Shown: in pieces, positions 3,334-19,013 of the stretch | How positions within the stretch are numbered: the stretch's first letter is position 1 | How the letters are laid out: each line of letters opens with the position of its first letter | Source of the DNA: Phosphitispora fastidiosa | GTDB taxonomy: Bacteria; Bacillota; Thermincolia; Thermincolales; UBA2595 | Reading direction: 5' to 3' | Length of the DNA stretch: 32,000 nucleotides | Assembly (NCBI RefSeq): GCF_019008365.1 | Contig: NZ_JAHHUL010000007.1 | Location: 14,133-46,132 of the forward strand | Made by a program: the position numbers and the translations under genes | Notes under the pieces: generated by a model | Told to the model about the DNA's origin: nothing | The model's input: the letters and a program-made list of their open reading frames with translations, nothing else | Databases searched by the model: none

Positions 3334-4899
3334 ATGCAGTGCAGTGAAATAAGAGAGTTGTTATCGGCATATATTGATGGTGTCCTGGATACTAATGAAA
3401 ACACAGCAGTCAAAGAGCATCTCAGGACCTGCAGCGAGTGCTCCCGGGATTTGGCTGACTTACAGGAGACCATCAGGCTGCTCCGTTCCCTTGGTGACAT
3501 CAGGCCTCCGGAAGGTTTTCGCCAAGAATTAAGGGGAAAACTGGAGAAAGAGCCGCTGCCTGCCGGCAGTATTAAAAATCTCTTTTGGACCCAAAAAGCC
3601 CGCCGCTGGATCGCCGGACCTGGAAAGTACCTGGCAGCTTCATTTATAATTATCGGTCTGGGGCTGAGTACGGGGATTTATAACCTCCTCCAGTCTGGAA
3701 TACTGCCTAAAAGTGCGTCATATGAAATGGCTCTGGAACAAAAGACGGAATCCGGTACAGACCGGGCAGCGCTGGAATCTGTGCCTCAAAACGGTAAAGA
3801 AAAGAGCATTGCGGAAATTCCTGCCGGAGAATCAGACACGGTATCTTCTACTGCCAGGAACCCGCAGGCCGAACAGAATGAAGGGTTTATTGCAGGGGCG
3901 CCTGCAGATATAGCTCTGAGAAAAGCCCTGGCGCCTGAGGGGAAAGGCGGAGGGACCGTTGATCCTGCAGCGGACCAAACTGCCGGAAATTCTATCAATT
4001 ACTCTGCTGCCAATCCGGAGACAACAGTTTTAAGGAGCAGCTATCAGGAAGGCGCTTCACAGGATAGCATTACCGACCAACCGCAGCAGCCCTTCATGAA
4101 GAGTTCAGAAATATTGATTACAGCCATGGAGACTCCGGAATCGGGAACCACAACTTCAGAGGCTTATCCTGAATCTCCTGAAGAAAGTGCAGGAAGTGTA
4201 TTAATAACTCCAAATTACGATTCAGGTGCAAGTAAAAACAGCGAAAAATCTGTTAGTGTTTCCGAGGATGCGGCTTTGTCCAACAATGGCATAAAAGGAG
4301 AAATAGACCAGGAGGCCGCTAAAGATGGTTTCCTCAGTATAGAAGTCAGTAATTATAAGGAGTTTGAACCAAAGCTGACAGGGCTTGTGGACCGGTTCAA
4401 CGGTTCTGTCGAAAGTTCCACCAGCCTTACAGGAGAGTTGGTTAATGCCGGATTTGTTATCAGGGTTCCGGCAAACAGCTTTAACGAAATGCTGGGCAAG
4501 ATTGAAGCCCTCGGGAAGGTTGCCGGGAAGCAGGTTTCCGACAGGGATATGTCTACAGAGATTGATGAGTCCCAGTCCAGAATGGATAACCTCCGGAATG
4601 AGGAGGAGCGCCTGCTGGGGCTGGTAGATAAGGCGAACTCCCTCGATGAGGCGCTGACTCTTGAAAAGGAACTGGCACGGGTCAGGGATGAGAGTGAACT
4701 AATTCAGGGCAAGTTAAACACTCTTAATGAATCCGGCCAATTTTCCCTGATCAGGCTTGATATCAGAGAAGCAGCGCCTGCAGAGGCTGAGCCGGTTCCG
4801 GAGAAAAGCGCAGCCGGGTGGCTTCTCCCGATAGCGCTGATTATTGCCGGGATTGGCGGTGTAATTTACTATTTCCGTATCAGGAGAGCTGAACCATAG
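3334..4899 (+). CDS. Membrane anti-sigma factor: N-terminal zf-HC2 (ZAS) domain, TM segment, long low-complexity linker, C-terminal DUF4349-like domain and C-terminal TM anchor
   Basis: ATG 3334 lies 4 nt after the sigma stop, behind GGGGGTAGGGAG. The H-x3-C-x2-C motif is HLRTCSEC. TM segment is YLAASFIIIGLGLSTGIYNLL. The C-terminal coiled region (FVIRVPANSFNEMLGKIEALGKV...STEIDESQSRMDNLRNEEERLL...LEKELARVRDE) is typical of DUF4349. The final TM is GWLLPIALIIAGIGGVIYYF. Confidence 0.8.
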   Translation: MQCSEIRELLSAYIDGVLDTNENTAVKEHLRTCSECSRDLADLQETIRLLRSLGDIRPPEGFRQELRGKLEKEPLPAGSIKNLFWTQKARRWIAGPGKYLAASFIIIGLGLSTGIYNLLQSGILPKSASYEMALEQKTESGTDRAALESVPQNGKEKSIAEIPAGESDTVSSTARNPQAEQNEGFIAGAPADIALRKALAPEGKGGGTVDPAADQTAGNSINYSAANPETTVLRSSYQEGASQDSITDQPQQPFMKSSEILITAMETPESGTTTSEAYPESPEESAGSVLITPNYDSGASKNSEKSVSVSEDAALSNNGIKGEIDQEAAKDGFLSIEVSNYKEFEPKLTGLVDRFNGSVESSTSLTGELVNAGFVIRVPANSFNEMLGKIEALGKVAGKQVSDRDMSTEIDESQSRMDNLRNEEERLLGLVDKANSLDEALTLEKELARVRDESELIQGKLNTLNESGQFSLIRLDIREAAPAEAEPVPEKSAAGWLLPIALIIAGIGGVIYYFRIRRAEP

Positions 4900-4958
4900 G
4901 CTTGCGAAAGGCCGATAATTGGAAGGTTTCAGACGGGTAAATTGTGGATTTTGCGGTA

Positions 4959-5016
4959 AATATTATGGCGGGGCGCTGCCGGGAAATTTCCGGTGCAAGT
5001 ACCCCGCCATAATATT
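4959..5016. repeat. Perfect 15-bp inverted repeat (AATATTATGGCGGGG / CCCCGCCATAATATT) with a 28-nt loop, between the anti-sigma gene and polA
   Basis: Left arm is 4959-4973 and right arm is 5002-5016. The loop contains a nested CCGG..GAAATTTC..CCGG palindrome. A third direct copy of ATTATGGCGGG sits at 5078-5088, just before the polA SD. Confidence 0.8.
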
Positions 5017-5112
5017 ATGCTTATTTCCCGGGCTGTGTTGCAGGTATTTTCCCATATTACGGTGAAAATACTATAAAATTATGGCGGGTTCACGCCCATG
5101 GGAGGAAACGTA

Positions 5113-7824
5113 ATGAAAGATAAAACCAGGTTGATGATTTTAGATGGGAACAGCCTCATTTACAGGGCATTTTATGCTATACCGCTGTTAACCAGCAGTG
5201 AAGGGGAGTTCACAAATGCGGTTTATGGTTTTATGAATATGCTGATGAAGGTTCTCAGTGATGAAAAACCGGGTTGTATTGCGGTTGCCTTTGATAAAGG
5301 GAAGGTAACCTTTAGGAATGAAAAATTTGACCAATACAAGGGCACCCGGAAAGCGACTCCTGACGAGCTGAGACCCCAGTTTGCCTATGTGAAGGATATT
5401 CTAAAGGCGATGAATATACCGACCTATGAGCTGGAGGGTTATGAGGCTGATGACCTGATAGGCACAGTAACTAAGCGGGCCGAGGAAGAGGGATATATGA
5501 GCGTCATTGTGACCGGGGACCGGGATGCCCTGCAGCTTATATCGCCGGCTACCACGGTGATGCTTACCCGGAAGGGGATTTCGGAGACTGAGCTTTATGA
5601 TACCGGCAGGGTAAAAGAGAGGTATGGCCTGACTCCGGAACAAATGATAGATGTGAAGGGACTTATGGGTGATTCCTCAGATAATATTCCCGGTGTACCC
5701 GGAATAGGTGAAAAGACTGCTCTCAAGCTGATAAACACGTATGGCAGCATGGAAAAGGTTTATGAAAACCTGGGTGACCTTACCCCAAAGATGCGGGAAA
5801 AGCTGACGGAAAACCGGGAACTGGCTTTTCTGAGCAGGGAACTGGCCACCATTATCAGGGATGTTCCCTTTGAACTTGATTTAATGGAGTGTTATCTGGA
5901 GGAACCGGATTATGATAAACTGATGCCACTGTTACAGAAAATGGAGTTTAAAACCCTGATTAATTCCTTTACCGAAAGAATGAAGGCTGCCGGACTGGCC
6001 CCATCCGAGTCCGGGCAGGCACCGCCGGTGTGTCAGGTGGAATATGAATGTACGGTACTGCCGCTGCAGGAAGGCCTGGACAGGCTGGCAGCTGACCTTG
6101 ATAAAGGAGAAATAAGCATATCTTATGAACTCAGCAATCCTGACCCGATGCTCGCTGAACTGACAGGATTCAGCTGGAGTGTGGAACCCGGCACTGCGGC
6201 ATATGTAACCGGGGTCGGGGAGGGCCAGGCCGAGTTATTCAGAGAAGAGGCAAATATATCTCCATTGGCGTCTCTGGCAGGGTCCAGAGCTGGGGTGAAA
6301 AAGTACTGTCATGACGGGAAAAGGCTTATGGTGGCACTTGATAGATACGGCATCAGGTGGGGGTCTGTTGCCCAGGATACGCTGCTGGCTGCCTACCTTC
6401 TGAACCCAACTGGGCATCACCAGGACCTGGCTGATTTGAGCGCAGAATACCTGGGGCGGGAGCTTGCTCCCGGCGATGAAAGCGCCGGAGCTGCCGGAAC
6501 TTCCGGAGCTGCCGGAGCCGGTTCGAGTGCGGCTGTCATTATGGAACTGCAGAAGGTATTGGCGCAAAAACTGGCTGATGACGGCCTGGAAGAACTGTAT
6601 TACAGTGTTGAGCTGCCCCTTACCAGAATACTGGCAGACATGGAGATAACCGGAGTCAGGGTAGACAGGGAGCGCCTCACGGAAATGTCAGCAGAACTGG
6701 CGGATAAGCTGGAAAACATCAGCACAGAGATATATGGGCTTTCCGGAGAGGAATTTAACATAAATTCACCAAAACAGCTGGGCTACATCCTTTTTGAAAA
6801 AATGGGACTCCCGGCAGCCAAAAAAACTAAAACCGGTTACTCAACTGATGTGGAGGTATTGGAAAGGCTGGCAGCCGAACACGGGATAGCGGAGAAGATC
6901 CTTGAGTTCAGGCAGCTTGCCAAACTTAAATCAACCTATGTAGACGGTCTCCGCGGCCTGATTAATCCCCGTACCGGCAGGCTGCATACAACCTTTAACC
7001 AGGCGGTTACAGCAACAGGCAGGCTCAGCAGCGCTGAACCAAACCTCCAGAACATCCCGATTCGGATGGAAGAAGGCAGGCGGATCAGAAAGGCTTTTGT
7101 GCCTTCTGAACCGGGACACCGGCTTCTGGCTGCCGACTACTCACAAATAGAATTAAGGGTACTGGCACATATTTCCGGTGATGCCAATTTCATCAGGGCC
7201 TTCAGAGAAGGACAGGATATCCACACACATACTGCTTCCGAGGTTTTTGGTGTTCCTGAAAATGAGGTTACCAGGGAAATGAGGGATGGCGCCAAGGCTG
7301 TTAACTTTGGAATTGTGTACGGGATCAGTGAGTTCGGTCTGGCAAGGAATATCAGGATAACCAGACAGCAGGCCAGAGAATATATTGACGGTTATCTGGA
7401 CCGTTACCCCGGCATCAGGGAATTCATGAAAAATATAGTGGTTGAGGCACGGGAAAATGGGTATGTGACCACTATCCTGGACCGGCGCAGATACATTCCT
7501 GACCTGAAAAGCCGCAACCACAATGTCAGGGCGTTCGGGGAACGGGCAGCCATGAACACCCCGATTCAGGGCAGCGCTGCTGATATCATTAAGCTGGCCA
7601 TGGTCAGGGTGGCGGAATGCCTGGAGCGGGAAGGCCTGAAGACTAAAATGCTGCTGCAGGTTCATGATGAGTTGATATTTGAAGTGCCTGAAGAGGAGAT
7701 GGAGAAGGCTGTCCCACTAATCAGGGATTGCATGGAAAATGCTGTAGAGCTGGAGGTTCCGCTGGTTGTGGACATGAAACAAGGCCCCAGTTGGTTTGAT
7801 ATGGAAAAGATTAAAAATGTCTAA
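5113..7824 (+). CDS. polA: DNA polymerase I
   Basis: ATG 5113 follows GGGAGGAAACG; the ORF-track start at 5098 has no SD. Also present: an N-terminal 5'-nuclease domain (LMILDGNSLIYRAFYA, GDSSDNIPGVPGIGEKTA) and polymerase motifs A (DYSQIELRVLAH), B (RDGAKAVNFGIVYG) and C (QVHDEL). Confidence 0.97.
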   Translation: MKDKTRLMILDGNSLIYRAFYAIPLLTSSEGEFTNAVYGFMNMLMKVLSDEKPGCIAVAFDKGKVTFRNEKFDQYKGTRKATPDELRPQFAYVKDILKAMNIPTYELEGYEADDLIGTVTKRAEEEGYMSVIVTGDRDALQLISPATTVMLTRKGISETELYDTGRVKERYGLTPEQMIDVKGLMGDSSDNIPGVPGIGEKTALKLINTYGSMEKVYENLGDLTPKMREKLTENRELAFLSRELATIIRDVPFELDLMECYLEEPDYDKLMPLLQKMEFKTLINSFTERMKAAGLAPSESGQAPPVCQVEYECTVLPLQEGLDRLAADLDKGEISISYELSNPDPMLAELTGFSWSVEPGTAAYVTGVGEGQAELFREEANISPLASLAGSRAGVKKYCHDGKRLMVALDRYGIRWGSVAQDTLLAAYLLNPTGHHQDLADLSAEYLGRELAPGDESAGAAGTSGAAGAGSSAAVIMELQKVLAQKLADDGLEELYYSVELPLTRILADMEITGVRVDRERLTEMSAELADKLENISTEIYGLSGEEFNINSPKQLGYILFEKMGLPAAKKTKTGYSTDVEVLERLAAEHGIAEKILEFRQLAKLKSTYVDGLRGLINPRTGRLHTTFNQAVTATGRLSSAEPNLQNIPIRMEEGRRIRKAFVPSEPGHRLLAADYSQIELRVLAHISGDANFIRAFREGQDIHTHTASEVFGVPENEVTREMRDGAKAVNFGIVYGISEFGLARNIRITRQQAREYIDGYLDRYPGIREFMKNIVVEARENGYVTTILDRRRYIPDLKSRNHNVRAFGERAAMNTPIQGSAADIIKLAMVRVAECLEREGLKTKMLLQVHDELIFEVPEEEMEKAVPLIRDCMENAVELEVPLVVDMKQGPSWFDMEKIKNV

Positions 7825-7913
7825 CATTTAACAATTAAAGTTTGGAGGACAATTTGCTATAATAGATATAGAAGTTCATGTTATGTTAACTAATATGGGG
7901 AGGTTACTACCTT

Positions 7914-8741
7914 ATGCCAGAATTACCGGAAGTGGAGACTATACGAAGGTCCCTGGAAGATAAAATAAAGGGCAAAACCTTTACAGGCATCGAAATTTTT
8001 CTCGAAAAGATTCTTAAGGGCATTGACGCGGGTGAGTTTGATGAGAAATTAAAAGGCAAAAAAATAACCGGAATCAGCCGCAGGGGCAAATACCTGATCA
8101 TACAGCTGTCCGGCGGCCTTGTAATGGTTGTCCACCTTAGAATGACAGGACAGCTCCTCTACTGTTCCGCAGAACAGGAACGGGTAAAACACACTCATGT
8201 GATTTTCCACCTGAGTGACAAATATGACTTGAGATTTGTTGACCAGCGCCAGTTTGGCAAGGTACAGTTTTTGCCCGCTAAAGATCTGGAGAACCTTTCC
8301 AGCCTGAAGAACCTGGGTGTGGAGCCTTTAAGTGATGATTTTACCAGGGAGTTTTTCAAAAAGGGCTTGCGCAACAGAAGGGTCAAGATTAAGCCCCTTC
8401 TCCTGGAACAGGAATTTATCGCCGGAATTGGCAACATTTATGCTGATGAGGCCCTGTTCCGGGCCAGGGTGAATCCGGAGAAGGTTGCCGCCAACCTCAG
8501 CCCCAGGGAGGCCTCAATGCTGTTTAATGCAATCAGGGAAGTCCTTATTGAGGGTATAGATAACAAGGGCACTTCCATCAAAGACTATATTGACGGTGAC
8601 GGTAACAAGGGCAGCAACCAGAATAATCTCAGGGTTTACGGGCGTGACAGACAGCCCTGTACAAAATGCGGCACGGAAATACAAAGAGTTGTGATCAGGG
8701 GCCGCAGCGCTCATTATTGTCCCAAGTGCCAAAAAATCTAA
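7914..8741 (+). CDS. mutM: Formamidopyrimidine-DNA glycosylase
   Basis: N-terminal MPELPEVETIRR (catalytic Pro2/Glu3), an H2TH region, and a C-terminal zinc finger CTKCG...AHYCPKCQ. Size is 275 aa, in the conserved position after polA. Confidence 0.95.
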   Translation: MPELPEVETIRRSLEDKIKGKTFTGIEIFLEKILKGIDAGEFDEKLKGKKITGISRRGKYLIIQLSGGLVMVVHLRMTGQLLYCSAEQERVKHTHVIFHLSDKYDLRFVDQRQFGKVQFLPAKDLENLSSLKNLGVEPLSDDFTREFFKKGLRNRRVKIKPLLLEQEFIAGIGNIYADEALFRARVNPEKVAANLSPREASMLFNAIREVLIEGIDNKGTSIKDYIDGDGNKGSNQNNLRVYGRDRQPCTKCGTEIQRVVIRGRSAHYCPKCQKI

Positions 8742-8872
8742 TAAGCGCTTTTTGCTGTACCGGTCCCGGACTAGCTCCCTGAATCGCAGACAGGCACATA
8801 AGGGGAACCCCTCCCATATATTACATTGTAAGGCCAAGGAGCAAGGAATCAGGAGGGGGGAGGACCGGTATA

Positions 8873-9541
8873 GTGGAACTGTTATCCATTATTGCCTTCG
8901 CAACAGCTTTGAGCCTGGATGGATTCGGTGTAGGAATCTCTTACGGCATGAGGAAGATCAGGATTCCCGTATTGTCACTGGTGGTAATCAGTCTGACATC
9001 ATCTACGGCCATAGGGCTGACCATGTTATCCGGCCATTTCGTGTCACAGTATATATCTGCAGAAATGGCGGAAATAATCGGGGCATCAATCCTGATACTG
9101 GTGGGGCTTTGGATTCTGCTGCAGACCTGGTCAAAAAAAGAATCTCATATCAAGCCAGGGGAGAAGAGTGTTGGGGAACACAATCCTGAGTGCCAGACAA
9201 TACTGGACTTTAAAATAGAGGCCTTTGGCCTGGTAATTAAGATAATGCGGGAGCCTACAGTTGCTGATTTTGACAAATCAGGGTTTATCAGTGTCAAGGA
9301 AGCGCTGCTCCTGGGATTGGCTTTAGCCATGGATGCCATTGGCGCCGGATTTGGCGCTGCTATGACGGGATTTACCCCTGTTTTAACTCCTTTGATAGTA
9401 GGGATTGTCAAATTCCTTATGGTAAGTCTGGGAGTAATTTTGGGGAGGCGTTATGCCGTTAATTGGCTGGGCAACCGGGCCGCGGTATTACCCGGATGGG
9501 TATTGATAATGCTTGGTGTGGCCAGGGTAATGAAGATCTAA
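8873..9541 (+). CDS. ytaF: Sporulation membrane protein YtaF (MntP-like membrane protein family)
   Basis: GTG start follows AGGAGGGGGGAGG. The polytopic membrane protein has duplicated halves (ALSLDGFGVGISYG ... ALAMDAIGAGFGAAM). Its position after polA-mutM matches Bacillus subtilis. Confidence 0.8.
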   Translation: MELLSIIAFATALSLDGFGVGISYGMRKIRIPVLSLVVISLTSSTAIGLTMLSGHFVSQYISAEMAEIIGASILILVGLWILLQTWSKKESHIKPGEKSVGEHNPECQTILDFKIEAFGLVIKIMREPTVADFDKSGFISVKEALLLGLALAMDAIGAGFGAAMTGFTPVLTPLIVGIVKFLMVSLGVILGRRYAVNWLGNRAAVLPGWVLIMLGVARVMKI

Positions 9542-9554
9542 AATGTAATATGGG

Positions 9555-9669
9555 CAGGGGTAGATGTATTCCTACGGCGGGCTACGTCTCCGCCGGCAGC
9601 AGCTCCCGCTTCGCGGGTCGCTGGCCGGACGGACGACAGACTCCGCCTTCCGGAACACATCTACCCCTG
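9555..9669. repeat. 115-nt GC-rich rod-like hairpin / long inverted repeat immediately after ytaF
   Basis: Outer arms 9555-9572 (CAGGGGTAGATGTATTCC) and 9652-9669 (GGAACACATCTACCCCTG) pair at 17 of 18 positions. The interior continues with GGCGG/CCGCC, CCGGCAGC/GCTG-GCCGG and CCCGC-TTC-GCGGG helices. It is followed by TTTCT. Confidence 0.75.
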
Positions 9670-9892
9670 TTTCTACTATATTTGGTATGTTCCCCTTAAG
9701 GTAGACAGGTTAAATAATGAAAACCTACTGTCGAAAGGGGAGCATTATCATGTTTTGAAAAAGACCAATATAGCGGAGCAAAGAAAAATGCGGCTGTAGG
9801 AGAGTCATGTCGCAAACTTTGGTTAATAGGAGTGGCTTGATTTTTCCATTTGAGTTATAATATTAGTTAAGAATAATTTAGGGGATGTTTCT

Positions 9893-10519
9893 ATGTCTCA
9901 TATTTATACAATAGGTCATTCAATACATTCAGTTGAACACTTTTTATTATTATTAAACAGCAATGGTATAAACTGTGTGGTTGATGTTAGAAGTGTTCCG
10001 TATTCAAAATACAGTCCTCAATACAATATGAATGAACTGAGGCAACAGTTAAAGAGTAACGGCATTTATTACGTTTTCATGGGAAAAGAACTTGGAGCAA
10101 GACAATCAGATAAATCTTTATACAATGATGATGGATATGTTGACTTTGAAAGAGTCAGAAATAGCACTCTTTTTAAGACTGGTATTGAACGGGTTAAAGC
10201 AGGAATGAAAAAGGGATTTAAGATTGCTTTGATGTGTACCGAAAAGGATCCTATAGAATGTCATAGGAATATTTTAGTGGCAAGAGCGTTTTATTTGCAA
10301 AACTATCCTGTTTTAAACATTCTTGAAAACGGCGCTGTGGAAACACAAGATCATTTGGAAAATAGATTATTAGATAAATATTTTCCTAATAGAAATCAAA
10401 GAAATATTTTAGAGTTACTTGATGGTGAAATCAATGAAAAAGATATGATAATAAAAGCTTATCGAGAACGGAATAAGGAAATCGGATATAAGAATGATGA
10501 TGGGAGTCAAGTAATATGA
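9893..10519 (+). CDS. DUF488 domain protein, long form (208 aa), function unknown
   Basis: SD AGGGGA lies 8 nt upstream of the ATG. DUF488 hallmarks as I recall the family: IYTIGHS, VVDVRSVPYS, YVFMGKELGAR and the C-x-E-x5-C-H-R motif (CTEKDPIECHRN). Sits in a low-GC context. Confidence 0.75.
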   Translation: MSHIYTIGHSIHSVEHFLLLLNSNGINCVVDVRSVPYSKYSPQYNMNELRQQLKSNGIYYVFMGKELGARQSDKSLYNDDGYVDFERVRNSTLFKTGIERVKAGMKKGFKIALMCTEKDPIECHRNILVARAFYLQNYPVLNILENGAVETQDHLENRLLDKYFPNRNQRNILELLDGEINEKDMIIKAYRERNKEIGYKNDDGSQVI

Positions 10520-10959
10520 AAGTGTATACTATTGGTTTTACAAAGAAATCTGCTAGAGAGTTTTTTGCTTTGCTAAAAAAGCATTCCGTGAAAAAAATAT
10601 TGGATATAAGATTAAATAATTGCTCACAACTGGCCGGTTTTTCCAAAGGAGCTGATTTAGAATATTTTTGTGAAATTTGTGGTATCGGGTACGAACACAA
10701 TACCAGGTTATCTCCAACCAAATCAATATTGGACGATTATAAGAAGAAACGGATTGGTTGGCCTGAATACGAAGAACAATTTCTCAAGCTCCTAAGTGAA
10801 AGAAAAGTTGAAGAATTATTTAACTTCGGTGATGGAAACAATGATGTGGTTTGTTTTCTATGCAGTGAAGAAAAGGCAGACCAATGCCACAGAAGATTGG
10901 TGGCAGAATATTTTAAATGCAAAAATCCTAAGTTAGATATAGAGATTGTTCATATTTAA
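10516..10959 (+). CDS. DUF488 domain protein, short form (147 aa), function unknown
   Basis: The ATG overlaps the upstream stop (ATGA at 10516-10519), and GGGAG lies 11 nt upstream. Motifs VYTIGFTKKS, ILDIRLNN and the same C-x-E-x5-C-H-R motif (CSEEKADQCHRR) are present. Confidence 0.72.
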   Translation: MKVYTIGFTKKSAREFFALLKKHSVKKILDIRLNNCSQLAGFSKGADLEYFCEICGIGYEHNTRLSPTKSILDDYKKKRIGWPEYEEQFLKLLSERKVEELFNFGDGNNDVVCFLCSEEKADQCHRRLVAEYFKCKNPKLDIEIVHI

Positions 10960-10990
10960 TTAACCTGGTTACGAAGCGGGGTGGTAAGAA

Positions 10991-11656
10991 ATGGTCAAAG
11001 AAATAATAATTTTGGCAACTTCGGTGAAATACCGAAATTATTGCATTGCCGGAATTGATAAAGCCACAGGTGAATGGGTGCGAATTATCTCGGATGATGA
11101 TTCGATAGAAAATGCTGTCAGAATGGAAGATATGTGTTACGCGGATGGCTCTGTTCCCAAGGTTTTTGATGTGGTTCGAATAAAATGTAAGGGACATAGA
11201 CCAAACTTTTATCAGCCGGAAAACTTTCTTCTAGATGATACCTGTTACTGGCAAAAAGTTGATAGGGCGAGTATAAGTGATGTAATAAAAGTTCATCCGC
11301 CTGAGGATAAACCATATATTTTTTATAATCATACAAAGCGCATTCACAAAGATGACTTAGAACAAATTTGTAAAGTTGCGTCGGACAACCACTCTTTAAT
11401 TCTCATTTCTCCTAAAAATGTTATTGTTCATGTTAATGAATTCCCTGAACGGAAAACCGTAACAATTAGTTTCGACTACAACGACTGTACATATAAGTGG
11501 ATACCTACGACAGATACAGACTTTAAGAAAAGATATTTGGAGTTAGAGCCATTTCACTATCGAGTTAAGGAACGGGTGTTCTTAGTATTAAGTCTAGGTG
11601 TATGTGACCCTAAAGATGGATGTCATTATAAGCTTGTTGCAACAGTATTAGAATAA
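10991..11656 (+). CDS. Hypothetical protein (221 aa), third gene of the DUF488 cassette
   Basis: SD GGGGTGG lies upstream of the ATG, and the ORF is a clean 221 codons in a low-GC context. No catalytic motif was recognised. The N-terminal IIILATSVKYRNYCIAGID..GEWVRI and C-terminal LSLGV...YKLVATVLE pattern loosely recalls proteins annotated as dual-OB-fold domain proteins; this is unverified. Confidence 0.7.
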   Translation: MVKEIIILATSVKYRNYCIAGIDKATGEWVRIISDDDSIENAVRMEDMCYADGSVPKVFDVVRIKCKGHRPNFYQPENFLLDDTCYWQKVDRASISDVIKVHPPEDKPYIFYNHTKRIHKDDLEQICKVASDNHSLILISPKNVIVHVNEFPERKTVTISFDYNDCTYKWIPTTDTDFKKRYLELEPFHYRVKERVFLVLSLGVCDPKDGCHYKLVATVLE

Positions 11657-11668
11657 AAGCAATTCTAG

Positions 11669-11705
11669 CCCAGGTCCTAATAATGACCTGGGTTTACTGT
11701 TTCTT
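11669..11705 (+). terminator. Rho-independent terminator closing the three-gene cassette
   Basis: CCCAGGTC (11669-11676), an 8-nt loop, then GACCTGGG (11685-11692), followed by TTTACTGTTTCTT. Confidence 0.7.
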
Positions 11706-11737
11706 AGGTTCTGCTGATAAAAAATAAAAATTAATAC

Positions 11738-11766
11738 TTGATTAATGTCCGGAGGAAAAGTATATT
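11738..11766 (+). promoter_or_regulatory. Sigma-A-type promoter upstream of coaE
   Basis: TTGATT (11738-11743), 17 nt, then TATATT (11761-11766), about 70 nt upstream of the coaE ATG. Confidence 0.4.
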
Positions 11767-11835
11767 TTATAGAGGATGGGCTTTTTGTAGTAGAAGCTGT
11801 TCCGAAAACTGTTCACACAAATAAGGAGAGTCATC

Positions 11836-12474
11836 ATGACTGTTATTGGCCTTACGGGAAGCATAGCCAGCGGTAAGAGCCTGGTTGCTGAGGTTCTTAA
11901 AGAAAAGGGAGCGGTATTAATCGATGCTGATGTGGTGGCCCGGGAAGTTGTTGAGCCGGGGACAGAAGGCTGGAGGCAAATCCGGACCGAATTTGGAGAT
12001 GCTATTTTAAAGCCTGACGGGACGGTTAACCGCAAAGAGCTTGGAAATATGGTTTTTGCCAGCCCCGGACTGTTGAAAAAATTGAATAATATTGTGCATC
12101 CCATCATAGAAAAAGAAGTAATCGGCAAAATAAATTTATTCCGTGCCGGCTCGGTAAATGGAAACGAGGTCATGGTTATTGATGCCCCGCTCCTTATTGA
12201 GGCAGGAATGCACCGCTTGGTAGATGAGGTCTGGGTGGTCGATATCCCTCATGAAGTGCGGGTAAGGCGCCTGATGGAGCGTGACCGGCTGACCAGGGAA
12301 CAAGCGCTTGGGAGGATAAAAAGCCAGATGCCTGCAGAGGAAAAAAAGAAGTATGCCGGCATTGTCATAGATAACTCTGGAGACAGGCATGATACCAGAA
12401 AAGCTGTGGCAGAATTATGGGAAAGGCGTTTCGGGAAACCCGGGGTGGAAACAGTTGAGAAAACGAAAAATTAG
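11836..12474 (+). CDS. coaE: Dephospho-CoA kinase
   Basis: SD AAGGAGAG is present. The P-loop is GLTGSIASGKS, the DADVVAREV motif is present, size is about 200 aa, and the gene occupies the conserved position after ytaF. Confidence 0.93.
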   Translation: MTVIGLTGSIASGKSLVAEVLKEKGAVLIDADVVAREVVEPGTEGWRQIRTEFGDAILKPDGTVNRKELGNMVFASPGLLKKLNNIVHPIIEKEVIGKINLFRAGSVNGNEVMVIDAPLLIEAGMHRLVDEVWVVDIPHEVRVRRLMERDRLTREQALGRIKSQMPAEEKKKYAGIVIDNSGDRHDTRKAVAELWERRFGKPGVETVEKTKN

Positions 12475-13027
12475 ACGTGGCCGGATTATCTGGTTGCTAT
12501 TGCTGATTGCGGTCGTTGCTATGTTGAGTAGCAAATCATTTTGGCGGGTGTTTTATCCGCTGCCTTATAAAGAACTGGTTTTTTCCCAGGCAGCAAAAAA
12601 CAATATAGATCCTTATTTGGTTGCTGCTATTATCAAGACTGAAAGCAATTTTGTGCCATCAGCCGAGTCCCCCATGGGAGCCAGGGGAATAATGCAGATA
12701 ATGCCCGAAACAGGAGCATGGGCAGCACAACAGATGAATCTCAGGGAATTCAAACCAGACGATCTCTATAATCCGGAACTCAATATCAGGATAGGGTCCT
12801 GGTATATCAGCAACCTTAATACAGAGTTTAAGGGCAATAAAATACTGGTAGTTGCAGCTTATAACGGGGGCCGGGGAAATGTTAGAGAATGGCTGGATAA
12901 GGGCCTCTGGACCGGTGAACATGCAAGTGTTGATCAGATACCTTTTAGTGAGACCAGAGCGTATGTCAAAAAGGTATTACGGAATTATTCCTGGTATAGG
13001 TATCTCTATAAGGAAGCTCCCGGATAA
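12389..13027 (+). CDS. Lytic transglycosylase (SLT domain) with N-terminal membrane anchor
   Basis: Anchor is IIWLLLLIAVVAMLS. SLT motifs are IIKTESNF (catalytic Glu), GIMQIMPET and AAYNGGRGNV. The true start is uncertain: ATG 12389 overlaps coaE by 86 nt, whereas the in-frame TTG at 12455 (behind GGGGTGGAA) would give MRKRKIRRG... Confidence 0.85.
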   Translation: MIPEKLWQNYGKGVSGNPGWKQLRKRKIRRGRIIWLLLLIAVVAMLSSKSFWRVFYPLPYKELVFSQAAKNNIDPYLVAAIIKTESNFVPSAESPMGARGIMQIMPETGAWAAQQMNLREFKPDDLYNPELNIRIGSWYISNLNTEFKGNKILVVAAYNGGRGNVREWLDKGLWTGEHASVDQIPFSETRAYVKKVLRNYSWYRYLYKEAPG

Positions 13028-13084
13028 CCCGCTGCGTATGTGGTATACAGGTCGTACAGGAGTTCCCTGTGGGCCCGGTTTTAG

Positions 13085-13113
13085 TTTACAAAAAATGCAA
13101 AATAGGATATAAT
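13085..13113 (+). promoter_or_regulatory. Strong sigma-A-type promoter with no annotated gene directly behind it
   Basis: TTTACA (13085-13090), exactly 17 nt, then TATAAT (13108-13113). Confidence 0.55.
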
Positions 13114-13211
13114 AAAAGCACACATTCCTTGACACCTCAAACGCACGTGGAAAGTAGGAGATTATTATGTTATTTGAGGGCAGGAAAACATTACAAAAAG
13201 GATATTTCACG

Positions 13212-13243
13212 GACCGGTCATCTATGGCCGGTCTTGTTGTTTG
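13212..13243 (+). terminator. Rho-independent terminator / attenuator upstream of the first sigma-54 activator
   Basis: GACCGGTC (13212-13219), a 6-nt loop, then GGCCGGTC (13226-13233). The stem is 8 bp including one G-U pair and is followed by TTGTTGTTTG. Confidence 0.55.
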
Positions 13244-13297
13244 TGATTACAAATAGCAATTAGTTTCAGATATTATTAAAGGAAAGGAGTGAAGGGA

Positions 13298-15391
13298 ATG
13301 CCGGTCCATGACAGGAAAGAACAAATGCTGAAAGCCTGGACAGAATTTGTGGAACAGGGGCATGTGAACAAAAACTGGGTCCGCCGGGAAATCGAAGATT
13401 CATGGCGCCGCAGCCGGAGTATGGGTATTGATAAGTGTCTTGAAAATATACCTTTTTTGGCTGAAACAGCTGAGCTGGAACAGCGCCGCGAAGCGAACCG
13501 GGAACTGCTTGAAATATCTTTCCCAATCATGAAGAACCTATTCTCCTTTGTTGAAGGATCCGGGTTTATCGTGGCCCTGATTGACCGTGATGGCATAATC
13601 CTGCAAAGCCTTGGCGACCGGGAGACTGTGGCCCTTGCATCCCGGAACAGCCTGGTTGCCGGAGCAAGCCTCAATGAAGCGGTATCCGGTACAAATGCAA
13701 CCGGGTTAGCCCTCAAACAGGGACGGCCTATACAGGTTTTTGCAACTGAGCACTACATCAAGGCCCTTCACCCCTGGACCTGTTCCTCCGGTCCCATTTA
13801 CGGGCATTCGGGGCAGTTGGTAGGGGCGCTGAGTATGACCGGTTCTTTTGAAAAAGTCCATTCACATACTCTGGGGATGGTTGTTGCCGCTATTGATTCT
13901 GTTGAAGGTCAATTAAAGGTAAATAAAGTCCTGGAAAACCTGCTGGTTGTCAATCGCTATCAGAATGCTATCGTGGAATCAATTTCCGATGGGCTGATAG
14001 CTGTTGACGAAAAAGCGCGGGTGACCAAAATAAATAAGGCTGCGGATGCTTTGTTAAAAATTAACCCGGATTCGGTCATTCATTCTTCAATTAACGAACT
14101 TCTGGGATATCACAACCCCATTTTAAAGGCTCTGCAGACAGGTGATATCTGCACCGATGAAGAGTTCCAGGCAGATACCAAGAGGGGTAAGGTGCATTGT
14201 ACCATGACCTGCCGGCCCATCCGGAATCCCCAGCAGAAAATTGTCGGAGTTGTTACAGTTGTCCGGGAGATCCGGGCAGTTAAGCAGTTGGTAACCCGTA
14301 TGGTCGGGGCCAGGGCCAGGTTTACCTTTGATGACCTGATAGGGAGGAATGCCACTTACCTGAAGACAGTGGAGATGGCCCGGACGGCTGGCGGAAGCTC
14401 TTCGAATGTGCTGCTGCTGGGTGAAAGCGGAACCGGCAAGGAGGTCTTTGCCCAGGCCATCCATAATGCCACCTCCAGAGCCAAAGGGCCGTTTATTGCC
14501 ATAAACTGTGCTGCCCTGCCCCGTGAGCTGATAGGGAGCGAACTGTTCGGATATAACGAGGGAGCCTTTACCGGCGCAAAACGGGGCGGCAGTCCAGGCA
14601 AATTCGAACTGGCTGACGGGGGAACCCTGTTCCTTGACGAAATCGGGGAAATGCCCCTTGAGCTTCAGGCTAACCTGCTCCGGGTTTTGCAGGAAAAGGC
14701 TGTGGTTAGAATCGGCGGGGACCAGGTGATCCCGGTTGATGTCCGGGTGATTGCGGCAACTAACAAAGACCTGCAGCGTGAAGTGGAAAAAGGGGCCTTC
14801 AGGTCAGACCTGTATTACAGGTTGAATGTGCTTACAATAAACATGGTTTCCCTGAGGAACCGCAAGGATGATATCCTTCCCCTGACCGGTTTTTTTGTGG
14901 AAAAGGTTAATGCCAGGCTGGGTAAAAATGCCGTGGTAATCCCTCCTGAAACCCTTGATTACCTCCAAAGGTATCACTGGCCCGGGAATATCAGGCAATT
15001 GGAGAACGTGATTGAGCGTGCAGTTCACATCGCCTCAGGGGAAAATATCACCCCTGACTGCCTGCCTGATGAAGTACTGTCAGATACCCGGATTCATCTG
15101 GTCAGCGCCGCACAAGAAGCGGAACAGGCTGAAACAAAGGCTAACAGTGATGTTGTCGTCAGAAAAAGCGGTAGGAAAGCCGGCAGAACCGATATCCTCG
15201 AGGCCATCAAAAACAATGACGGCAATCTGACAAATGCCGCCAAGGACCTTAAAATATCAAGGAGTACTCTTTACCGGAAGATGGAAAAATATAGTATTAA
15301 GGTGGTTGAAGGGGAGTTTGTCTCATCAGGAATGCACCGGTCACGGCCCTTCATAGAAGTGGCCAATGAGCGCTTCCGGATTGATGATTAG
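13298..15391 (+). CDS. Sigma-54-dependent transcriptional activator (AcoR-like N-terminal GAF-type sensor, PAS, AAA+, Fis-type HTH)
   Basis: ATG 13298 lies 8 nt after GGAAAGGAG. Walker A is GESGTGKE, the GAFTGA loop is [11 protein letters not shown], Walker B is LFLDEIGEM, and the C-terminal HTH is [19 protein letters not shown]. Confidence 0.92.
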
Positions 15392-15406
15392 AGTAAGCTG
15401 TATATA

Positions 15407-16501
15407 CTATATAGTTAAGTTAATCTGCTGGACAGTTCCTACTGTCCCGTTTTCTTTTACAAACAGACCTGTCTTGCTGACCTGTCCCAGTGTCTCATTA
15501 CTCTGGTTTTTGACGGCAAAAAGGGTTTCGATATTGCCAAGGTAGACAGCGCCAATGCCTTTTTCGCCCAGCGCAAACAGGGTATCCTTGCCATCCCCAT
15601 CCTTGGTCCAGATGCGGAGTTTCTCAAAAACAGAGTCACTTTCGTCTATCCACCCGCTGCCATCCTCATCATAGACGGCCAATTCCAGGAAACCGTTACC
15701 GGTTTCGGGCCCGAAGAGTTCTCCGCCATTATTGATGACACCGTCATTATTGCGGTCAAGCGCCAGGAAGCCGCTCCCAGGCCTTACAAAGGAAATCTGG
15801 TCATTAGCGCCGTCTGTATCCAGGTCAAAACTAAATTTTGTATTGGTTAATTCGGCAGCTGCCCCGCTGAAATTAATTACCAGGGGGTCAATTTTTTCGG
15901 CATCACCGGCACGGATACTGATATTTTGTTCCTGCATAAAGGACCTGCTCATAGCTAAATCAACCGAGAAAGCTATTTCCCTGCCGTCTGTGGTATTTAT
16001 CACCCCGGCAGCTGAAAATGATGTTGCTTCTGTTTCCTGGTACTTTTCATGGGATTCATAGACCATTCCCCAGCCCTGGTTTCCTTCCTGAGGGCGCCCT
16101 GCAGGGCCGCTGCCTGGGGATGAATTTTGTGGGCCGGCGCTGTTTTTGTCCTGACATTCCTCTGAAAGACAGGTCACCTTTATTTTTATTTTTTTACCTG
16201 TCATCATTTCAATAAGTCTTTCGATAAGTGAGACCTTGAGTTTATCTTCTTCAGACAGCAGGTCTTCGGGGCTGCCGCTGCCTTCTACGGACCCCGCCGC
16301 TTTTGCCTGAGCCGAGATGTCCACAGTATCCGGAGCGGAGGGGAGCGCTGCCTGGGCAGAGGCATTTCTTGCTCCCATTAAGGATTGAGGGCTGCGGGGA
16401 CTCCGGCTGCCGACCCAGACCCTCAAGCTCTCACTTCGTTCATATGTCTCACTGTAAGTGCGGCTGCTGAACATGGCGATACTGCTGTTGGCAATTTTCA
16501 T
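15407..16501 (-). CDS. Hypothetical protein with C-terminal DxDxDG-type (EF-hand-like) calcium-binding repeats
   Basis: The ATG at 16501-16499 follows GGGAGGAG; the upstream 36 codons in the ORF track lack an SD. Repeats are DLDTDGANDQ, DRNNDGVINNGGELFG, DEDGSGWIDESD and TKDGDGKD. No signal peptide is obvious. Confidence 0.7.
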   Translation of the reverse strand: MKIANSSIAMFSSRTYSETYERSESLRVWVGSRSPRSPQSLMGARNASAQAALPSAPDTVDISAQAKAAGSVEGSGSPEDLLSEEDKLKVSLIERLIEMMTGKKIKIKVTCLSEECQDKNSAGPQNSSPGSGPAGRPQEGNQGWGMVYESHEKYQETEATSFSAAGVINTTDGREIAFSVDLAMSRSFMQEQNISIRAGDAEKIDPLVINFSGAAAELTNTKFSFDLDTDGANDQISFVRPGSGFLALDRNNDGVINNGGELFGPETGNGFLELAVYDEDGSGWIDESDSVFEKLRIWTKDGDGKDTLFALGEKGIGAVYLGNIETLFAVKNQSNETLGQVSKTGLFVKENGTVGTVQQINLTI

Positions 16502-16616
16502 AACATTACTCCTCCCTGAGTTTACCTTTCCGCTAATTCCATTTTGCGGATTAATTGTTGGTATATTTTTCTTATCGGGAAATTCAAAAAATACTTTAGA
16601 TAATAACATTTTGCCT

Positions 16617-16659
16617 GGATAACATTAAATTTGCAGGGATAATGATAAATTTGTAGAAT
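16617..16659 (+). promoter_or_regulatory. Tandem 20-bp direct repeats overlapping a sigma-A-type promoter for the LpdD-like/UbiD pair
   Basis: GGATAACATTAAATTTGCAG (16617-16636) and GGATAATGATAAATTTGTAG (16637-16656) share 16 of 20 positions. TTGCAG (16631-16636), 17 nt, then TAGAAT (16654-16659) form the promoter. A degenerate third copy lies at about 16598-16616. Confidence 0.45.
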
Positions 16660-16705
16660 ATTTCCGGGGAATAATCACATATATAAGGAAGGCTGGGGTG
16701 ATTAT

Positions 16706-17161
16706 ATGTATCCTGAGGAAGTTAAAGTGACGTACGGGGAAGGAAGGTATATGATTGAAATATCGTCAGTGGTTACCGGCGATGGTATTTCAATTACAAT
16801 TACCGGGGGTGAAAAGCCCCACATCGGCGGGGTTGCATTAAGTGTGCCCCGCAGGAGCCTTGGTGGTGAGAAGGTCTCCTGTGATACCTGGGTGCTGCCG
16901 GTACCGGGACATAAAGATACCGAAATTGCTGTGCCGGTTGCCGAAATGGTTTCCAGGGAAACAGGCAGGACGGTTGCTGTTACTGCCGGGATTCATATTG
17001 ACAGGGCTGAGGAAAGGGAGCTCCGGACACTGGTGGAAAACAGCCTGGCGGCTGCCGGTCTGCTATTGGAACAAATCGGCGAGCTTTCCGAAGCACAGGA
17101 AGACCGGCAGGAGGAAAAGGAAGTTCGGTCTGATAATGAGGAGAATGATGATGCACAATAA
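16706..17161 (+). CDS. LpdD-like protein (putative prenylated-flavin chaperone / UbiD accessory subunit)
   Basis: SD GGGGTGA is present. ITITGGEKPHIGGVAL ... PGHKDTEIAVPVAEMVSRETGRTVAVTAGIHID parallels the VVTGGTNPHIGDV ... SHDGRFHKD ... CTITAGIHVN core of Lactiplantibacillus plantarum LpdD, recalled from memory. The gene has an acidic tail and overlaps the UbiD gene start. Confidence 0.6.
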   Translation: MYPEEVKVTYGEGRYMIEISSVVTGDGISITITGGEKPHIGGVALSVPRRSLGGEKVSCDTWVLPVPGHKDTEIAVPVAEMVSRETGRTVAVTAGIHIDRAEERELRTLVENSLAAAGLLLEQIGELSEAQEDRQEEKEVRSDNEENDDAQ

Positions 17162-18911
17162 CCTGAGGAGTTTTCTGGCAACACTTAAAAGGGAAAAACT
17201 GATTATTGAGGTAGGTGCCGAGGTTGACCCATATCTGGAGCTTGCAGAGATTCACCGCAGGGTCATAGAGGAGGAAGGCCCGGCATTGCTGTTTACAAAT
17301 GTCAGGGGCAGCAGCTTCCCGGTTGTTACTAATCTTTTCGGTACCCGCCATAGAGTGGAACTGGCCATGGGGCCAAGGCCGCAGCAAATCCTGAAAAAGG
17401 TATCAGGAGCGATGGACAGGCTGCTGCCCCCGAAGCTGAAAAACCTCTGGGGGGAACGTGACTGGCTTTTGAGTATTGCCAAGAGCGGCCTTAACCGGGT
17501 TAGCCGCGATAAGGCTCCGGTACTGCAGGAGAAGCAGGCCGAAGTAAACCTTGGGGAACTTCCGGTACTGACAAGCTGGCAGGACGATGGGGGCCCCTTT
17601 GTTACCCTGCCTCTGGTCTATACCGAACACCCTCAAAACAGGGAACATAACCTGGGAATGTACCGGATTCAGATATTTTCCAAAAACCAGACCGGGATGC
17701 ACTGGCAGATACATAAGGGAGGCGGGTTCCATTACCATGAAGCGGAAAAGCTGAACCGGCCGCTTCCGGTAACCCTGTTCCTGGGAGGACCTCCGGCCTT
17801 GATTATAGCGGCTATTACGGCCCTGCCCGAGCCCCTGCCGGAGCTGATTTATACTTCCTTCCTGATGGGAGAAAAAATGAATATGGCTGAGGTGGCGGGA
17901 CATGCCCATAGATTGATAGCTGAGGCCGAGTTTGCCATCTGTGGGGAGGTTCCTCCCCATGAACGGAAACCGGAAGGGCCTTTTGGGGATCATTACGGCT
18001 ATTATTCATTGACTCACGATTTCCCGGTATTTAATGTCAAACAGGTCTATCACCGCCGGGATGCCATTTACCCGGCCACAGTGGTGGGGAAACCGCGGCA
18101 GGAGGATTATTATATCGCAGAATGGATGCAGGACCTGCTGGCACCCATGTTTCCTGTCCTGATGCCAGGGGTAAAATCCCTCTGGGCCTATGGCGAGGCC
18201 GGAGTTCATTCCCTGGCGGCGGCAGTTGTCAGGGAGAGTTATTTCCGGGAAGCGCTGGGTCATGCCTTCAGGATACTTGGCGAAGGCCAGCTGACCCTGA
18301 CCAAATTCCTCATGGTAACCGATGTAGTACTCGACCTTAAAGATTTCCCCAGCTTGCTGGAAAATATCCTGAGACGTTTTAACCCGGCTCGTGACCTGAT
18401 TATAATTGATGACACGGCCATGGATACTCTTGATTACACGGGGCGTCGTTTTAACCGGGGCAGCAAGGCCATTATGCTGGGACTGGGTGAACCGGTGCGG
18501 GAAATTCCCGGGGAATATACCGGGGGACAGCTTCAGGGCATCGATGTGGTAAGACCTTACTGCAGGGGATGCCTGATGGTTTCAGGCAGTTCTTTTGAAG
18601 ATGCACCGGGCCTGGCGGAAGAGTTGGTGAAAAATTCCCGCACCCGGCTGGAAGAGTGGCCCCTTGTGGTCTTGGTTGACGATGCCGCCGGAATTATGGA
18701 TCAGACCGGGTTCCTGTGGACAGTCTTTACCCGTTTTGACCCGGCATGGGATATATATGCTGATTATAAGGTGAGAAACAACAAAATCAGGTATGAGGGA
18801 CCTGTTATAATTGATGCCCGGATGAAACCCCAGTATCCCGCAGAACTTATTCCCCGGGAAGATATTGTCAGGAAGGTTTCTGAGCGGTGGAGTGAATTGT
18901 TTGATGTGTAG
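17151..18911 (+). CDS. UbiD-family (prFMN-dependent) decarboxylase
   Basis: Three consecutive in-frame ATGs (17145/17148/17151) follow GAGGAG (17138-17143). UbiD hallmarks are NNLRSFLATLKREKLIIEV, PALLFTNVRGS, HNLGMYRIQIF, MHWQIHKGGGFHY and LFLGGPPALIIAA. The 16842 start in the ORF track is an out-of-frame overlap with the upstream gene. Confidence 0.88.
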   Translation: MHNNLRSFLATLKREKLIIEVGAEVDPYLELAEIHRRVIEEEGPALLFTNVRGSSFPVVTNLFGTRHRVELAMGPRPQQILKKVSGAMDRLLPPKLKNLWGERDWLLSIAKSGLNRVSRDKAPVLQEKQAEVNLGELPVLTSWQDDGGPFVTLPLVYTEHPQNREHNLGMYRIQIFSKNQTGMHWQIHKGGGFHYHEAEKLNRPLPVTLFLGGPPALIIAAITALPEPLPELIYTSFLMGEKMNMAEVAGHAHRLIAEAEFAICGEVPPHERKPEGPFGDHYGYYSLTHDFPVFNVKQVYHRRDAIYPATVVGKPRQEDYYIAEWMQDLLAPMFPVLMPGVKSLWAYGEAGVHSLAAAVVRESYFREALGHAFRILGEGQLTLTKFLMVTDVVLDLKDFPSLLENILRRFNPARDLIIIDDTAMDTLDYTGRRFNRGSKAIMLGLGEPVREIPGEYTGGQLQGIDVVRPYCRGCLMVSGSSFEDAPGLAEELVKNSRTRLEEWPLVVLVDDAAGIMDQTGFLWTVFTRFDPAWDIYADYKVRNNKIRYEGPVIIDARMKPQYPAELIPREDIVRKVSERWSELFDV

Positions 18912-18925
18912 AGGTTATTTACACT

Positions 18926-18960
18926 CCCTATTTGTCTTGACAAATGGGGGCATTATATTT
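18926..18960 (+). terminator. Hairpin terminator after the UbiD gene
   Basis: CCCTATTTGT (18926-18935) pairs with ACAAATGGGG (18940-18949), giving a 10-bp stem with one G-U and loop CTTG. It is followed by a moderately T-rich tail (CATTATATTTCGGCATTTT). Confidence 0.5.
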
Positions 18961-19013
18961 CGGCATTTTAGTTTAGCTTAAACACTACTCGATTTAACAT
19001 AAGATTGTTCTGC

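Follow-up and report, generated by a model that had tools for sequence, protein, structure and literature searches.

Three adjacent genes in a 32,000-nucleotide stretch of the Phosphitispora fastidiosa genome (NCBI RefSeq assembly GCF_019008365.1, contig NZ_JAHHUL010000007.1, positions 14,133 to 46,132 of the forward strand; hereafter the window) are, judging from profile matches, a further copy of PDC-M45, a phage defence candidate already catalogued in PADLOC, and the cassette that they form is a recent, horizontally acquired insertion into a block of housekeeping genes, between ytaF and coaE. The cassette encodes a long and a short protein of the DUF488 family and a protein of the DuOB (dual OB) family. 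The original prediction for this locus, made from the sequence alone, had put the cassette forward as a candidate for an undescribed system; that view is superseded, as the trio is PDC-M45 of PADLOC (Payne et al. 2024), with dedicated Pfam families for DuOB and DUF488-N3a.

Match of the cassette to PDC-M45

The three genes, taken from the list of open reading frames (ORFs), are as follows.

9893–10519, + strand: long DUF488 gene (gene 1), 208 amino acids (aa)
10516–10959, + strand: short DUF488 gene (gene 2), 147 aa
10991–11656, + strand: DuOB gene (gene 3), 221 aa

Each protein matches one of the three PDC-M45 profile hidden Markov models (HMMs). The long DUF488 protein (Pfam PF04343, E = 5.3e-24) matches PDC-M45B (PDLC04657; E = 2.7e-62, residues 2–203 on profile positions 4–195 of 204), the short DUF488 protein (PF04343, E = 5.3e-19) matches PDC-M45C (PDLC04658; E = 8.9e-57, residues 1–142 on positions 1–141 of 145) and the third protein matches PDC-M45A (PDLC04653; E = 1.1e-40, residues 2–221 on positions 4–224 of 230). 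The short protein also passes the cutoff of 27 bits for PF22751 (DUF488-N3a, 'active DUF488-N3 subclade') with 36.2 bits; the long one reaches only 15.5 bits and is thus not a member of N3a. The original prediction had already recognized both DUF488 products but had left the third protein as an orphan, which it is not: it is a full-length DuOB protein (PF22557, 'dual OB-containing domain'; E = 3.5e-50; score 171.4 bits, cutoff 27; residues 3–219 on positions 1–210 of 210), and it is 100% identical to an NCBI entry of P. fastidiosa that is named 'dual OB domain-containing protein'. The long DUF488 protein is likewise 100% identical to an NCBI entry of P. fastidiosa. None of the three proteins is covered by an NCBIfam model, and sequence searches of the PDB with all three returned nothing significant. 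DUF488 is a large family that includes Escherichia coli YeaO; to our knowledge, a function has been measured for neither DUF488 nor DuOB.

The abbreviation PDC denotes a 'phage defence candidate' (Payne et al. 2024, bioRxiv 10.1101/2024.01.29.577857). The 145 PDCs were derived from genes embedded in BREX, DISARM or type I restriction–modification (RM) loci and were added to PADLOC (10.1101/2024.01.29.577857), and among them PDC-M45 is entered as CAS_00153, a cassette of three families (count 68; 10.1101/2024.01.29.577857, supplementary file 8). Its defence function is a published prediction. The window copy has the same three families, side by side and all on the + strand, with HMM E values of 1e-40 to 1e-62, but it stands alone in a housekeeping operon, whereas the original candidate was embedded in BREX, DISARM or type I RM loci; the difference is therefore one of context, not of content.

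The three genes are tightly packed, and their coordinates and spacing proved to be as originally described when set against the ORF list and the sequence. An ATGA stop/start overlap at 10516–10519 joins the two DUF488 genes, through which the short gene is translationally coupled to the long one, and a 31-nt spacer separates the short DUF488 gene from the DuOB gene. Shine–Dalgarno-like motifs (AGGGGA, GGGAG and GGTGG) stand at a sensible distance ahead of the three genes, one for each, as had also been noted. Two further signals enclose the set.

9850–9877, + strand: promoter-like site TTGAGT-16-AATAAT within the cassette, 15 nt 5' of gene 1 (consensus scan)
11667–11694, + strand: terminator-like hairpin closing the cassette (10 bp, 6 GC pairs)

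The promoter-like site is a pattern match only, and the regional number of such sites is not above chance. The hairpin has a folding energy of −20.6 kcal/mol (z = −3.4 relative to shuffled sequences). It supports the terminator originally placed at 11669–11705, although that terminator is not a clean one: the T-tract 3' of the hairpin, TTTACTGTTTCTT, is imperfect and reaches approximately position 11706.

Recent insertion between ytaF and coaE

Empty sites in relatives establish the cassette as an insertion. Six loci (L023–L028) were reached through the closest CoaE homologues, which are 79–97% identical to the CoaE of the window.

L023, metagenome-assembled genome GCA_016841725.1: CoaE 97% identical, empty site
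L024–L026, three rock-porewater metagenome contigs: CoaE 97% identical, empty site
L027, Phosphitispora sp. TUW77: CoaE 80% identical, empty site
L028, GCA_016841325.1: CoaE 79% identical, empty site

In 6/6 relatives the gene order is extracytoplasmic function (ECF) sigma factor, anti-sigma factor, polA, mutM, Mntp, coaE, SLT and sigma54 activator, with Mntp and coaE about 205–270 bp apart and a DUF488 or DuOB gene between them in none of the six. The flanks of these loci share 80–96% nucleotide identity with the window. By blastn against L023, the closest of them, positions 4007–9670 of the window correspond to 1207–6862 of L023 at 96.2% identity and positions 11720–18915 to 6884–14020 at 94.2% identity, so that ~2,049 bp of the window replace ~21 bp of L023. 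In the junction alignment the left homology stops at …ACCCCTGT and the right homology restarts at AAAAATAAAAATTAATACTTG. Because all six relatives have the same block with a short gap between ytaF and coaE, and without the cassette, the segment at ~9671–11719 is a recent insertion, acquired horizontally. The base composition that had first suggested horizontal acquisition is consistent with this: the G+C content is 0.343 in the insert and 0.466 in the rest of the window, and at third codon positions (GC3) it is 0.24–0.31 in the three cassette genes and 0.46–0.56 in polA, mutM, ytaF, coaE and their neighbours. The insert and its surroundings are laid out below.

8873–9541: Mntp/YtaF-type gene (ytaF), left flank of the cassette (Pfam)
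9532–9692, + strand: native long hairpin directly 3' of the ytaF stop; host DNA that marks the left junction
~9671–11719, no strand: inserted segment of ~2.05 kb, mapped by blastn against L023 and the junction alignment, each edge about ±15 bp
11738–11766, + strand: native coaE promoter-like site TTGATT-17-TATATT (scan); host DNA, intact to the right of the insert
11836–12474: coaE, right flank of the cassette, with an SLT transglycosylase gene next (Pfam)

The end of ytaF at 9541 and the start of coaE at 11836 are as first read, and with six empty-site relatives, a promoter-like site and a terminator hairpin of its own, the cassette is the self-contained module in a housekeeping block that had been proposed. 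It went in downstream of the native hairpin of ytaF and upstream of the native promoter-like site of coaE. The relatives conserve both of these elements, and therefore neither host gene was disturbed by the insertion. The promoter-like sequence of coaE, TTGATTAATGTCCGGAGGAAAAGTATATTTTATAG, is kept in all empty-site loci. The ytaF-side hairpin (−84.9 kcal/mol, z = −7.6) occurs once in the window; its outer stem (GGGGTAGATGTATTCC / GGAACACATCTACCCC) is kept in L023–L027, where the inner stem varies with compensating changes, and L028 has an unrelated simple terminator in its place. Rfam has no match to this hairpin or to any other part of the insert or flanks, and the hairpin is perhaps an elaborate form of terminator, or else a structured element outside the known classes.

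The insert holds only the three ORFs of the list, with no recombinase or transposase, and neither terminal inverted repeats nor a target-site duplication was found at the mapped junctions by repeat scan and junction alignment. It thus differs from transposons, integrative elements and integron cassettes, having no recombinase, terminal repeats or duplication of its own. An 11-nt direct repeat, AGGAGAGTCAT (at 9798 and 11824), was rejected as a target-site duplication because its left copy lies 127 bp within the insert and its right copy is the native Shine–Dalgarno sequence of coaE, present in the empty sites as well; exact 11-mer pairs in the region number 4, against 1.64 ± 1.59 in shuffled sequences, which is not clearly above chance. 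The cassette bounds first proposed, 9798–11834, coincide with this chance-level repeat and give way to those from the empty-site alignment. An 8-nt sequence near both junctions, CTGTTTCT, was also discarded as a duplication, since it is too short and the alignment gives it no support. The obvious routes of entry are illegitimate recombination and an exchange of homologous flanks with some relative that has not been sampled.

Predicted structures and conserved residues

A C-x-E…C-H-R motif is invariant in both DUF488 families (C115, E117, C123, H124 and R125 in the long protein; C116, E118, C124, H125 and R126 in the short one), and a D-[VI]-R element is also kept. The two paralogues of the window are 26% identical to each other, and each family has its own extra invariant residues, which in the short family are N35, Q38, H61, W82 and Y85. 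The kept motif, the low mutual identity and the family-specific invariants therefore make both DUF488 proteins look catalytically competent and non-redundant.

The AlphaFold2 (AF2) model of the long protein (predicted local distance difference test, pLDDT, 90) has a Rossmann-like α/β core (residues ~1–135) followed by a conserved helical C-terminal extension; strand 111–115 ends in C115, residues 116–123 form a loop, and helix 124–135 opens with H124-R125. The top PDB neighbours in Foldseek include PRL-1/PTP4A1, the ancestral protein tyrosine phosphatase (PTP) ShufPTP, KAP, MKP5 and archaeal PTPs, with a tetrapyrrole-methylase domain also among the best. The matches are weak (E 6e-3 to 6e-2, template modelling (TM) score 0.3–0.47, probability 0.75–1.0), with P-loop GTPases and kinases ranking in between; they support a place for DUF488 in the cysteine PTP/rhodanese fold class and do not fix a specific activity. 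The window's DUF488 proteins resemble the PTP-like DUF488 clade in that they keep Cys and Arg in a strand–loop–helix arrangement and have PTP folds as best, if weak, structural neighbours, but they differ from classical PTPs in a longer Cys–Arg loop, C-x9-R with a second Cys-His, as opposed to C-x5-R. The abstract of a 2023 study by Burroughs and Aravind is said to describe a RapZ-C–DUF488–DUF4326 clade with predicted DNA-end processing in conflict systems; this study is presumably where the Pfam families DUF488-N3a and DuOB come from. The PTP-like neighbours also agree with the placing of DUF4326 in the rhodanese-phosphatase superfamily (Iyer et al. 2022, PMC9503650).

The model of DuOB (pLDDT 93.4) is almost all beta and consists of two β-barrels. 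Its best Foldseek matches are the HIN-200 double-stranded DNA sensors and the single-stranded DNA (ssDNA) binders LEF-3, Teb1 and POT1 (E ~5e-3, TM 0.3–0.39, identity ~10%), and the predicted fold suggests a place among tandem-OB DNA binders. With HIN-200/PYHIN proteins (AIM2, IFI16 and p204), LEF-3, Teb1 and POT1 it has in common two consecutive OB-type barrels in a unit of ~200 aa; the similarity is one of fold class alone and does not support homology or a shared DNA-binding surface. By fold class and by a natural fusion to RQC and HRDC (below), DuOB is the presumed nucleic-acid-binding subunit. A polar cluster, S11, K13, C18, E77 and N78, is invariant in its orthologues.

Related copies and their surroundings

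The DuOB family is large: after clustering at 50% identity, 3,314 representatives match at E ≤ 1e-3 and 2,306 at E ≤ 1e-10. For the recurrence of the trio we used 22 reference loci obtained by scanning the DuOB alignment against one genome per species, with partner genes called by phmmer searches of the three window proteins against the locus ORFs. These loci come from Clostridia, Negativicutes, Anaerolineaceae, Synergistaceae and Caldatribacterium, that is, from the phyla Bacillota, Chloroflexota, Synergistota and Atribacterota. A short DUF488 gene adjoins DuOB in all 22, and a long DUF488 gene is also present in 17 of the 21 loci that could be assessed (L003 is cut by a contig end and falls outside these 21). 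The gene order is that of the window in 16 of the 17 complete trios, the two DUF488 genes being swapped in the remaining one (L005). Three Selenomonadales loci have short DUF488 and DuOB only, and one Synergistaceae locus has short DUF488 with two DuOB genes.

The recurrence of the trio in unrelated genomes, proposed earlier as a check, is thus borne out, and some copies lie directly beside McrBC or GmrSD. The refuting conditions named with the original prediction do not overturn it, given that the cassette is missing from the relatives and that the three families occur together in other genomes. In gut Clostridia, McrB (AAA_5), McrC, GmrSD and the DUF488–DUF488–DuOB trio follow one another on one strand (L018, 204–6624), or GmrSD is followed by the trio (L014, 3222–6624). 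Elsewhere the trio is found near a D5-type primase and an AP2-HNH protein (L001), an ImmA/IrrE-type regulator (L005) or a TopB-like topoisomerase (L015), and further copies have AAA_21 ATPases, integrases or ISL3 transposases nearby. Candidates derived from embedding associate with other defence systems less than those derived from enrichment do (Payne et al., 10.1101/2024.01.29.577857). The mixed context of the trio copies fits this remark, although it gives no statistical demonstration that the module acts in defence.

The two-gene variant of Selenomonadales, too, has entered a housekeeping operon and thereby provides a second case of this kind: in L009, L010 and L012 (~5540–6650 in each), short DUF488 and DuOB lie directly 3' of an rseP-like M50 peptidase gene in the block frr-uppS-cdsA-rseP, and in L009 and L012 a radical SAM gene converges on the module.

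Distant DuOB homologues, 24–32% identical to the window protein, are found on proteobacterial plasmids, in an operon of DuOB, DUF488-N3a (146 aa) and a fused mSLOG+DUF4326 protein.

L029, 5001–6689: plasmid variant of Acinetobacter baumannii pB8300, among RelE/ParE and BrnT/BrnA modules and a recombinase
L030, 4989–6656: plasmid variant of Citrobacter freundii pLNU-11

This variant resembles the window cassette in having DuOB beside a DUF488-N3a protein of ~146 aa, and differs from it in placing DuOB first, in carrying mSLOG+DUF4326 where the window has long DUF488, and in the divergence of DuOB itself. Since the plasmid variant keeps DuOB and DUF488-N3a, that pair is the conserved core, and the third gene of the module apparently encodes another enzyme from this broad clade, long DUF488 in the one case and DUF4326 in the other. 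On Klebsiella pneumoniae plasmid pH205, the DuOB gene is cut short beside ISEcp1-blaCMY-36. No real relative of DuOB was found in phage GenBank entries (tblastn), IMG/VR or BFVD (structural search), and thus the module is not phage-borne.

Two natural fusions of DuOB are DuOB+RQC+HRDC (P0279, 602 aa) and DuOB+DUF1351 (P0248, 496 aa), and several other members have an N-terminal extension of ~100 aa without a Pfam match. P0371 was considered as a fusion of long and short DUF488, from which a Rosetta-stone argument that the two interact might have been made, and was set aside: its second half repeats the long type, and the protein is thus an internal duplication or an assembly artefact.

Possible function and alternatives

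The reading that we tentatively put first, giving it somewhat less than even chances, is that a horizontally acquired copy of PDC-M45 sits in a neutral intergenic site and that its DuOB protein presents nucleic acid to two DUF488 enzymes acting on ends. DuOB would bind nucleic acid, most likely ssDNA or the DNA ends of an invading element, and would present it to long and short DUF488, which as distantly related, cysteine-dependent enzymes of the PTP/rhodanese fold might cleave off, transfer or modify in some other way the phosphate or sugar-phosphate groups at the termini. Ends processed in this way would be marked, or would be unusable for replication, ligation or packaging. The analysis establishes which families the three proteins belong to, their conserved synteny, the recency of the insertion and the fold classes; nucleic-acid binding, catalysis on termini and a role in defence are what we infer. 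Several observations favour such a mechanism. The constant position of short DUF488 beside DuOB, with long DUF488 as the usual third gene and mSLOG+DUF4326 in its stead on the plasmids, indicates a functional linkage; the invariant C-x-E…C-H-R motif and the Cys-phosphatase neighbours of DUF488 speak for enzymes, and the HIN-200, LEF-3, Teb1 and POT1 matches of DuOB for DNA binding; the RQC and HRDC modules to which DuOB is fused are DNA-binding modules; and the surroundings of some copies, with McrBC/GmrSD, integrases, a D5-type primase and an ImmA-type regulator, as well as those of the plasmid copies among toxin–antitoxin modules, are contexts of genetic conflict. The bolder proposal that the cassette is a genuine immune system, with a tandem-OB sensor of invader DNA ends or ssDNA and two cysteine enzymes that edit terminal groups and so block replication or packaging, is conceivable though rather doubtful.

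Several points weigh against end processing in defence. The window locus has no neighbouring defence genes, and many of the 22 related loci lie in ordinary metabolic or housekeeping surroundings. The structural matches of DuOB and DUF488 are all weak and support a fold class, not a specific activity, and the invariant polar cluster of DuOB might form a pocket for a small molecule or for catalysis instead of a surface for nucleic acid. In the plasmid variant, mSLOG points to a nucleotide ligand, which is as compatible with a small-molecule substrate as with a nucleic-acid one. The 145 PDC systems were, moreover, explicitly published as untested (Payne et al. 2024, 10.1101/2024.01.29.577857), and an experiment on PDC-M45, DuOB or DUF488-N3a was not found in the searchable literature, where no main text names PDC-M45 either.

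An alternative interpretation, which we consider unlikely, is that the module processes small molecules derived from nucleotides or NAD, with the DUF488 proteins acting on phosphates of free ADP-ribose-like or nucleotide signals and DuOB serving as sensor or scaffold; it could then still serve in conflicts, for or against signalling-based immunity. SLOG domains bind nucleotide ligands, and both the replacement of long DUF488 by mSLOG+DUF4326 on the plasmids and the YpsA/SLOG proteins near two trios are in keeping with such a substrate, as is the pocket-like appearance of the invariant DuOB cluster. Support also comes from Iyer et al. 2022 (PMC9503650), who propose as substrate of DUF4326 the terminal phosphates carried by the ribose of ADP-ribose (ADPr) or of products of its breakdown. 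However, the DuOB fold matches and the RQC/HRDC fusion point to polymeric nucleic acid, and no signal-generating domain (SLOG, TIR, cyclase or other) is present in the Firmicute trio, that of the window included. In another reading the DUF488 proteins would act on 2'/3'-phosphate or cyclic-phosphate RNA termini, with DuOB binding the RNA, in RNA-end or tRNA repair or modification that serves housekeeping or stress and not immunity. OB folds commonly bind RNA, anticodon-binding OB domains of aspartyl-tRNA synthetases occur among the weaker Foldseek matches of DuOB (ranks 35 and 48–50), the C-terminal domain of RapZ, a relative, binds small RNAs, and many trio copies have non-defence surroundings. 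We nevertheless hold RNA repair to be quite improbable, since the best structural matches of DuOB are DNA binders and no RNA ligase, kinase (Pnkp/Hen1) or RtcB partner stands beside any trio, and since the patchy distribution, the horizontal transfer and the absence from all close relatives argue against a housekeeping role.

The small, tightly coupled operon might also be a toxin–antitoxin or addiction module, one part being toxic and another neutralizing, which persists through post-segregational killing and has no part in defence. The distant variants on plasmids of 4–35 kb, beside RelE/ParE and BrnT/BrnA, and the AAA_21/AbiEii-type proteins among the neighbours of other copies are what such a module would lead one to expect. 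We regard addiction as very unlikely, however, as none of the three proteins matches a toxin or antitoxin family in Pfam, NCBIfam or PADLOC, all three are well conserved, globular and of a size typical of enzymes, none of them being a small labile antitoxin or a DNA-binding helix–turn–helix protein, and the catalytic residues are kept in both DUF488 paralogues. Least credible of all is that the cassette is functionless hitchhiking DNA, a decaying remnant of transfer with no current role. The insert occurs once, at a neutral intergenic position, its lack of a mobility gene, target-site duplication and terminal repeats is compatible with a remnant, and one related copy (L022) looks degraded. In the window, by contrast, decay is argued against because the three ORFs are intact and full length and retain essentially all orthologue-invariant residues; the cassette also still has its ribosome-binding sites, its translational coupling and its terminator.

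The locus adds nothing categorically new, but it is an unusually clean instance of PDC-M45: complete, intact and 2 kb in size, with its own promoter-like site and terminator, junctions mapped to ~15 bp, and a near-isogenic empty-site relative (L023) whose flanks are 94–96% identical. Its compactness, mapped junctions and empty-site relative make it a convenient construct for a first functional test of PDC-M45. It also shows such cassettes spreading as solo insertions in housekeeping intergenic sites without a recombinase of their own. Should the cassette prove to be immune in function, its mechanism would be one not yet demonstrated for any defence, and the P. fastidiosa insertion with its isogenic-like empty sites would form a natural test pair.

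Other features of the window

A small difference from the relatives lies 5' of polA, in the anti-sigma/DUF4349 gene, where positions 3803–4021 of the window and 850–1146 of L023 form a divergent patch with small indels (90% identity); the encoded protein varies in length among the relatives, from 294 to 612 aa. The sole Rfam match in the window that reaches the gathering score is a tRNA gene at 1395–1474 (− strand).

A second island of low G+C content (0.34–0.36) extends over ~18915–22000 of the window, beginning exactly where synteny with L023 ends and just past a UbiD-family gene (16842–18911). It holds the following genes.

19014–20720, − strand: GAF-sigma54 activator
20572–21060, − strand: 162-aa protein without a family
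21643–22998, + strand: ligase with an AMP-binding_C_2 domain

The island was considered as a companion defence island and rejected on its content, which belongs to regulation or metabolism; it has the look of an insertion of that kind specific to the strain.

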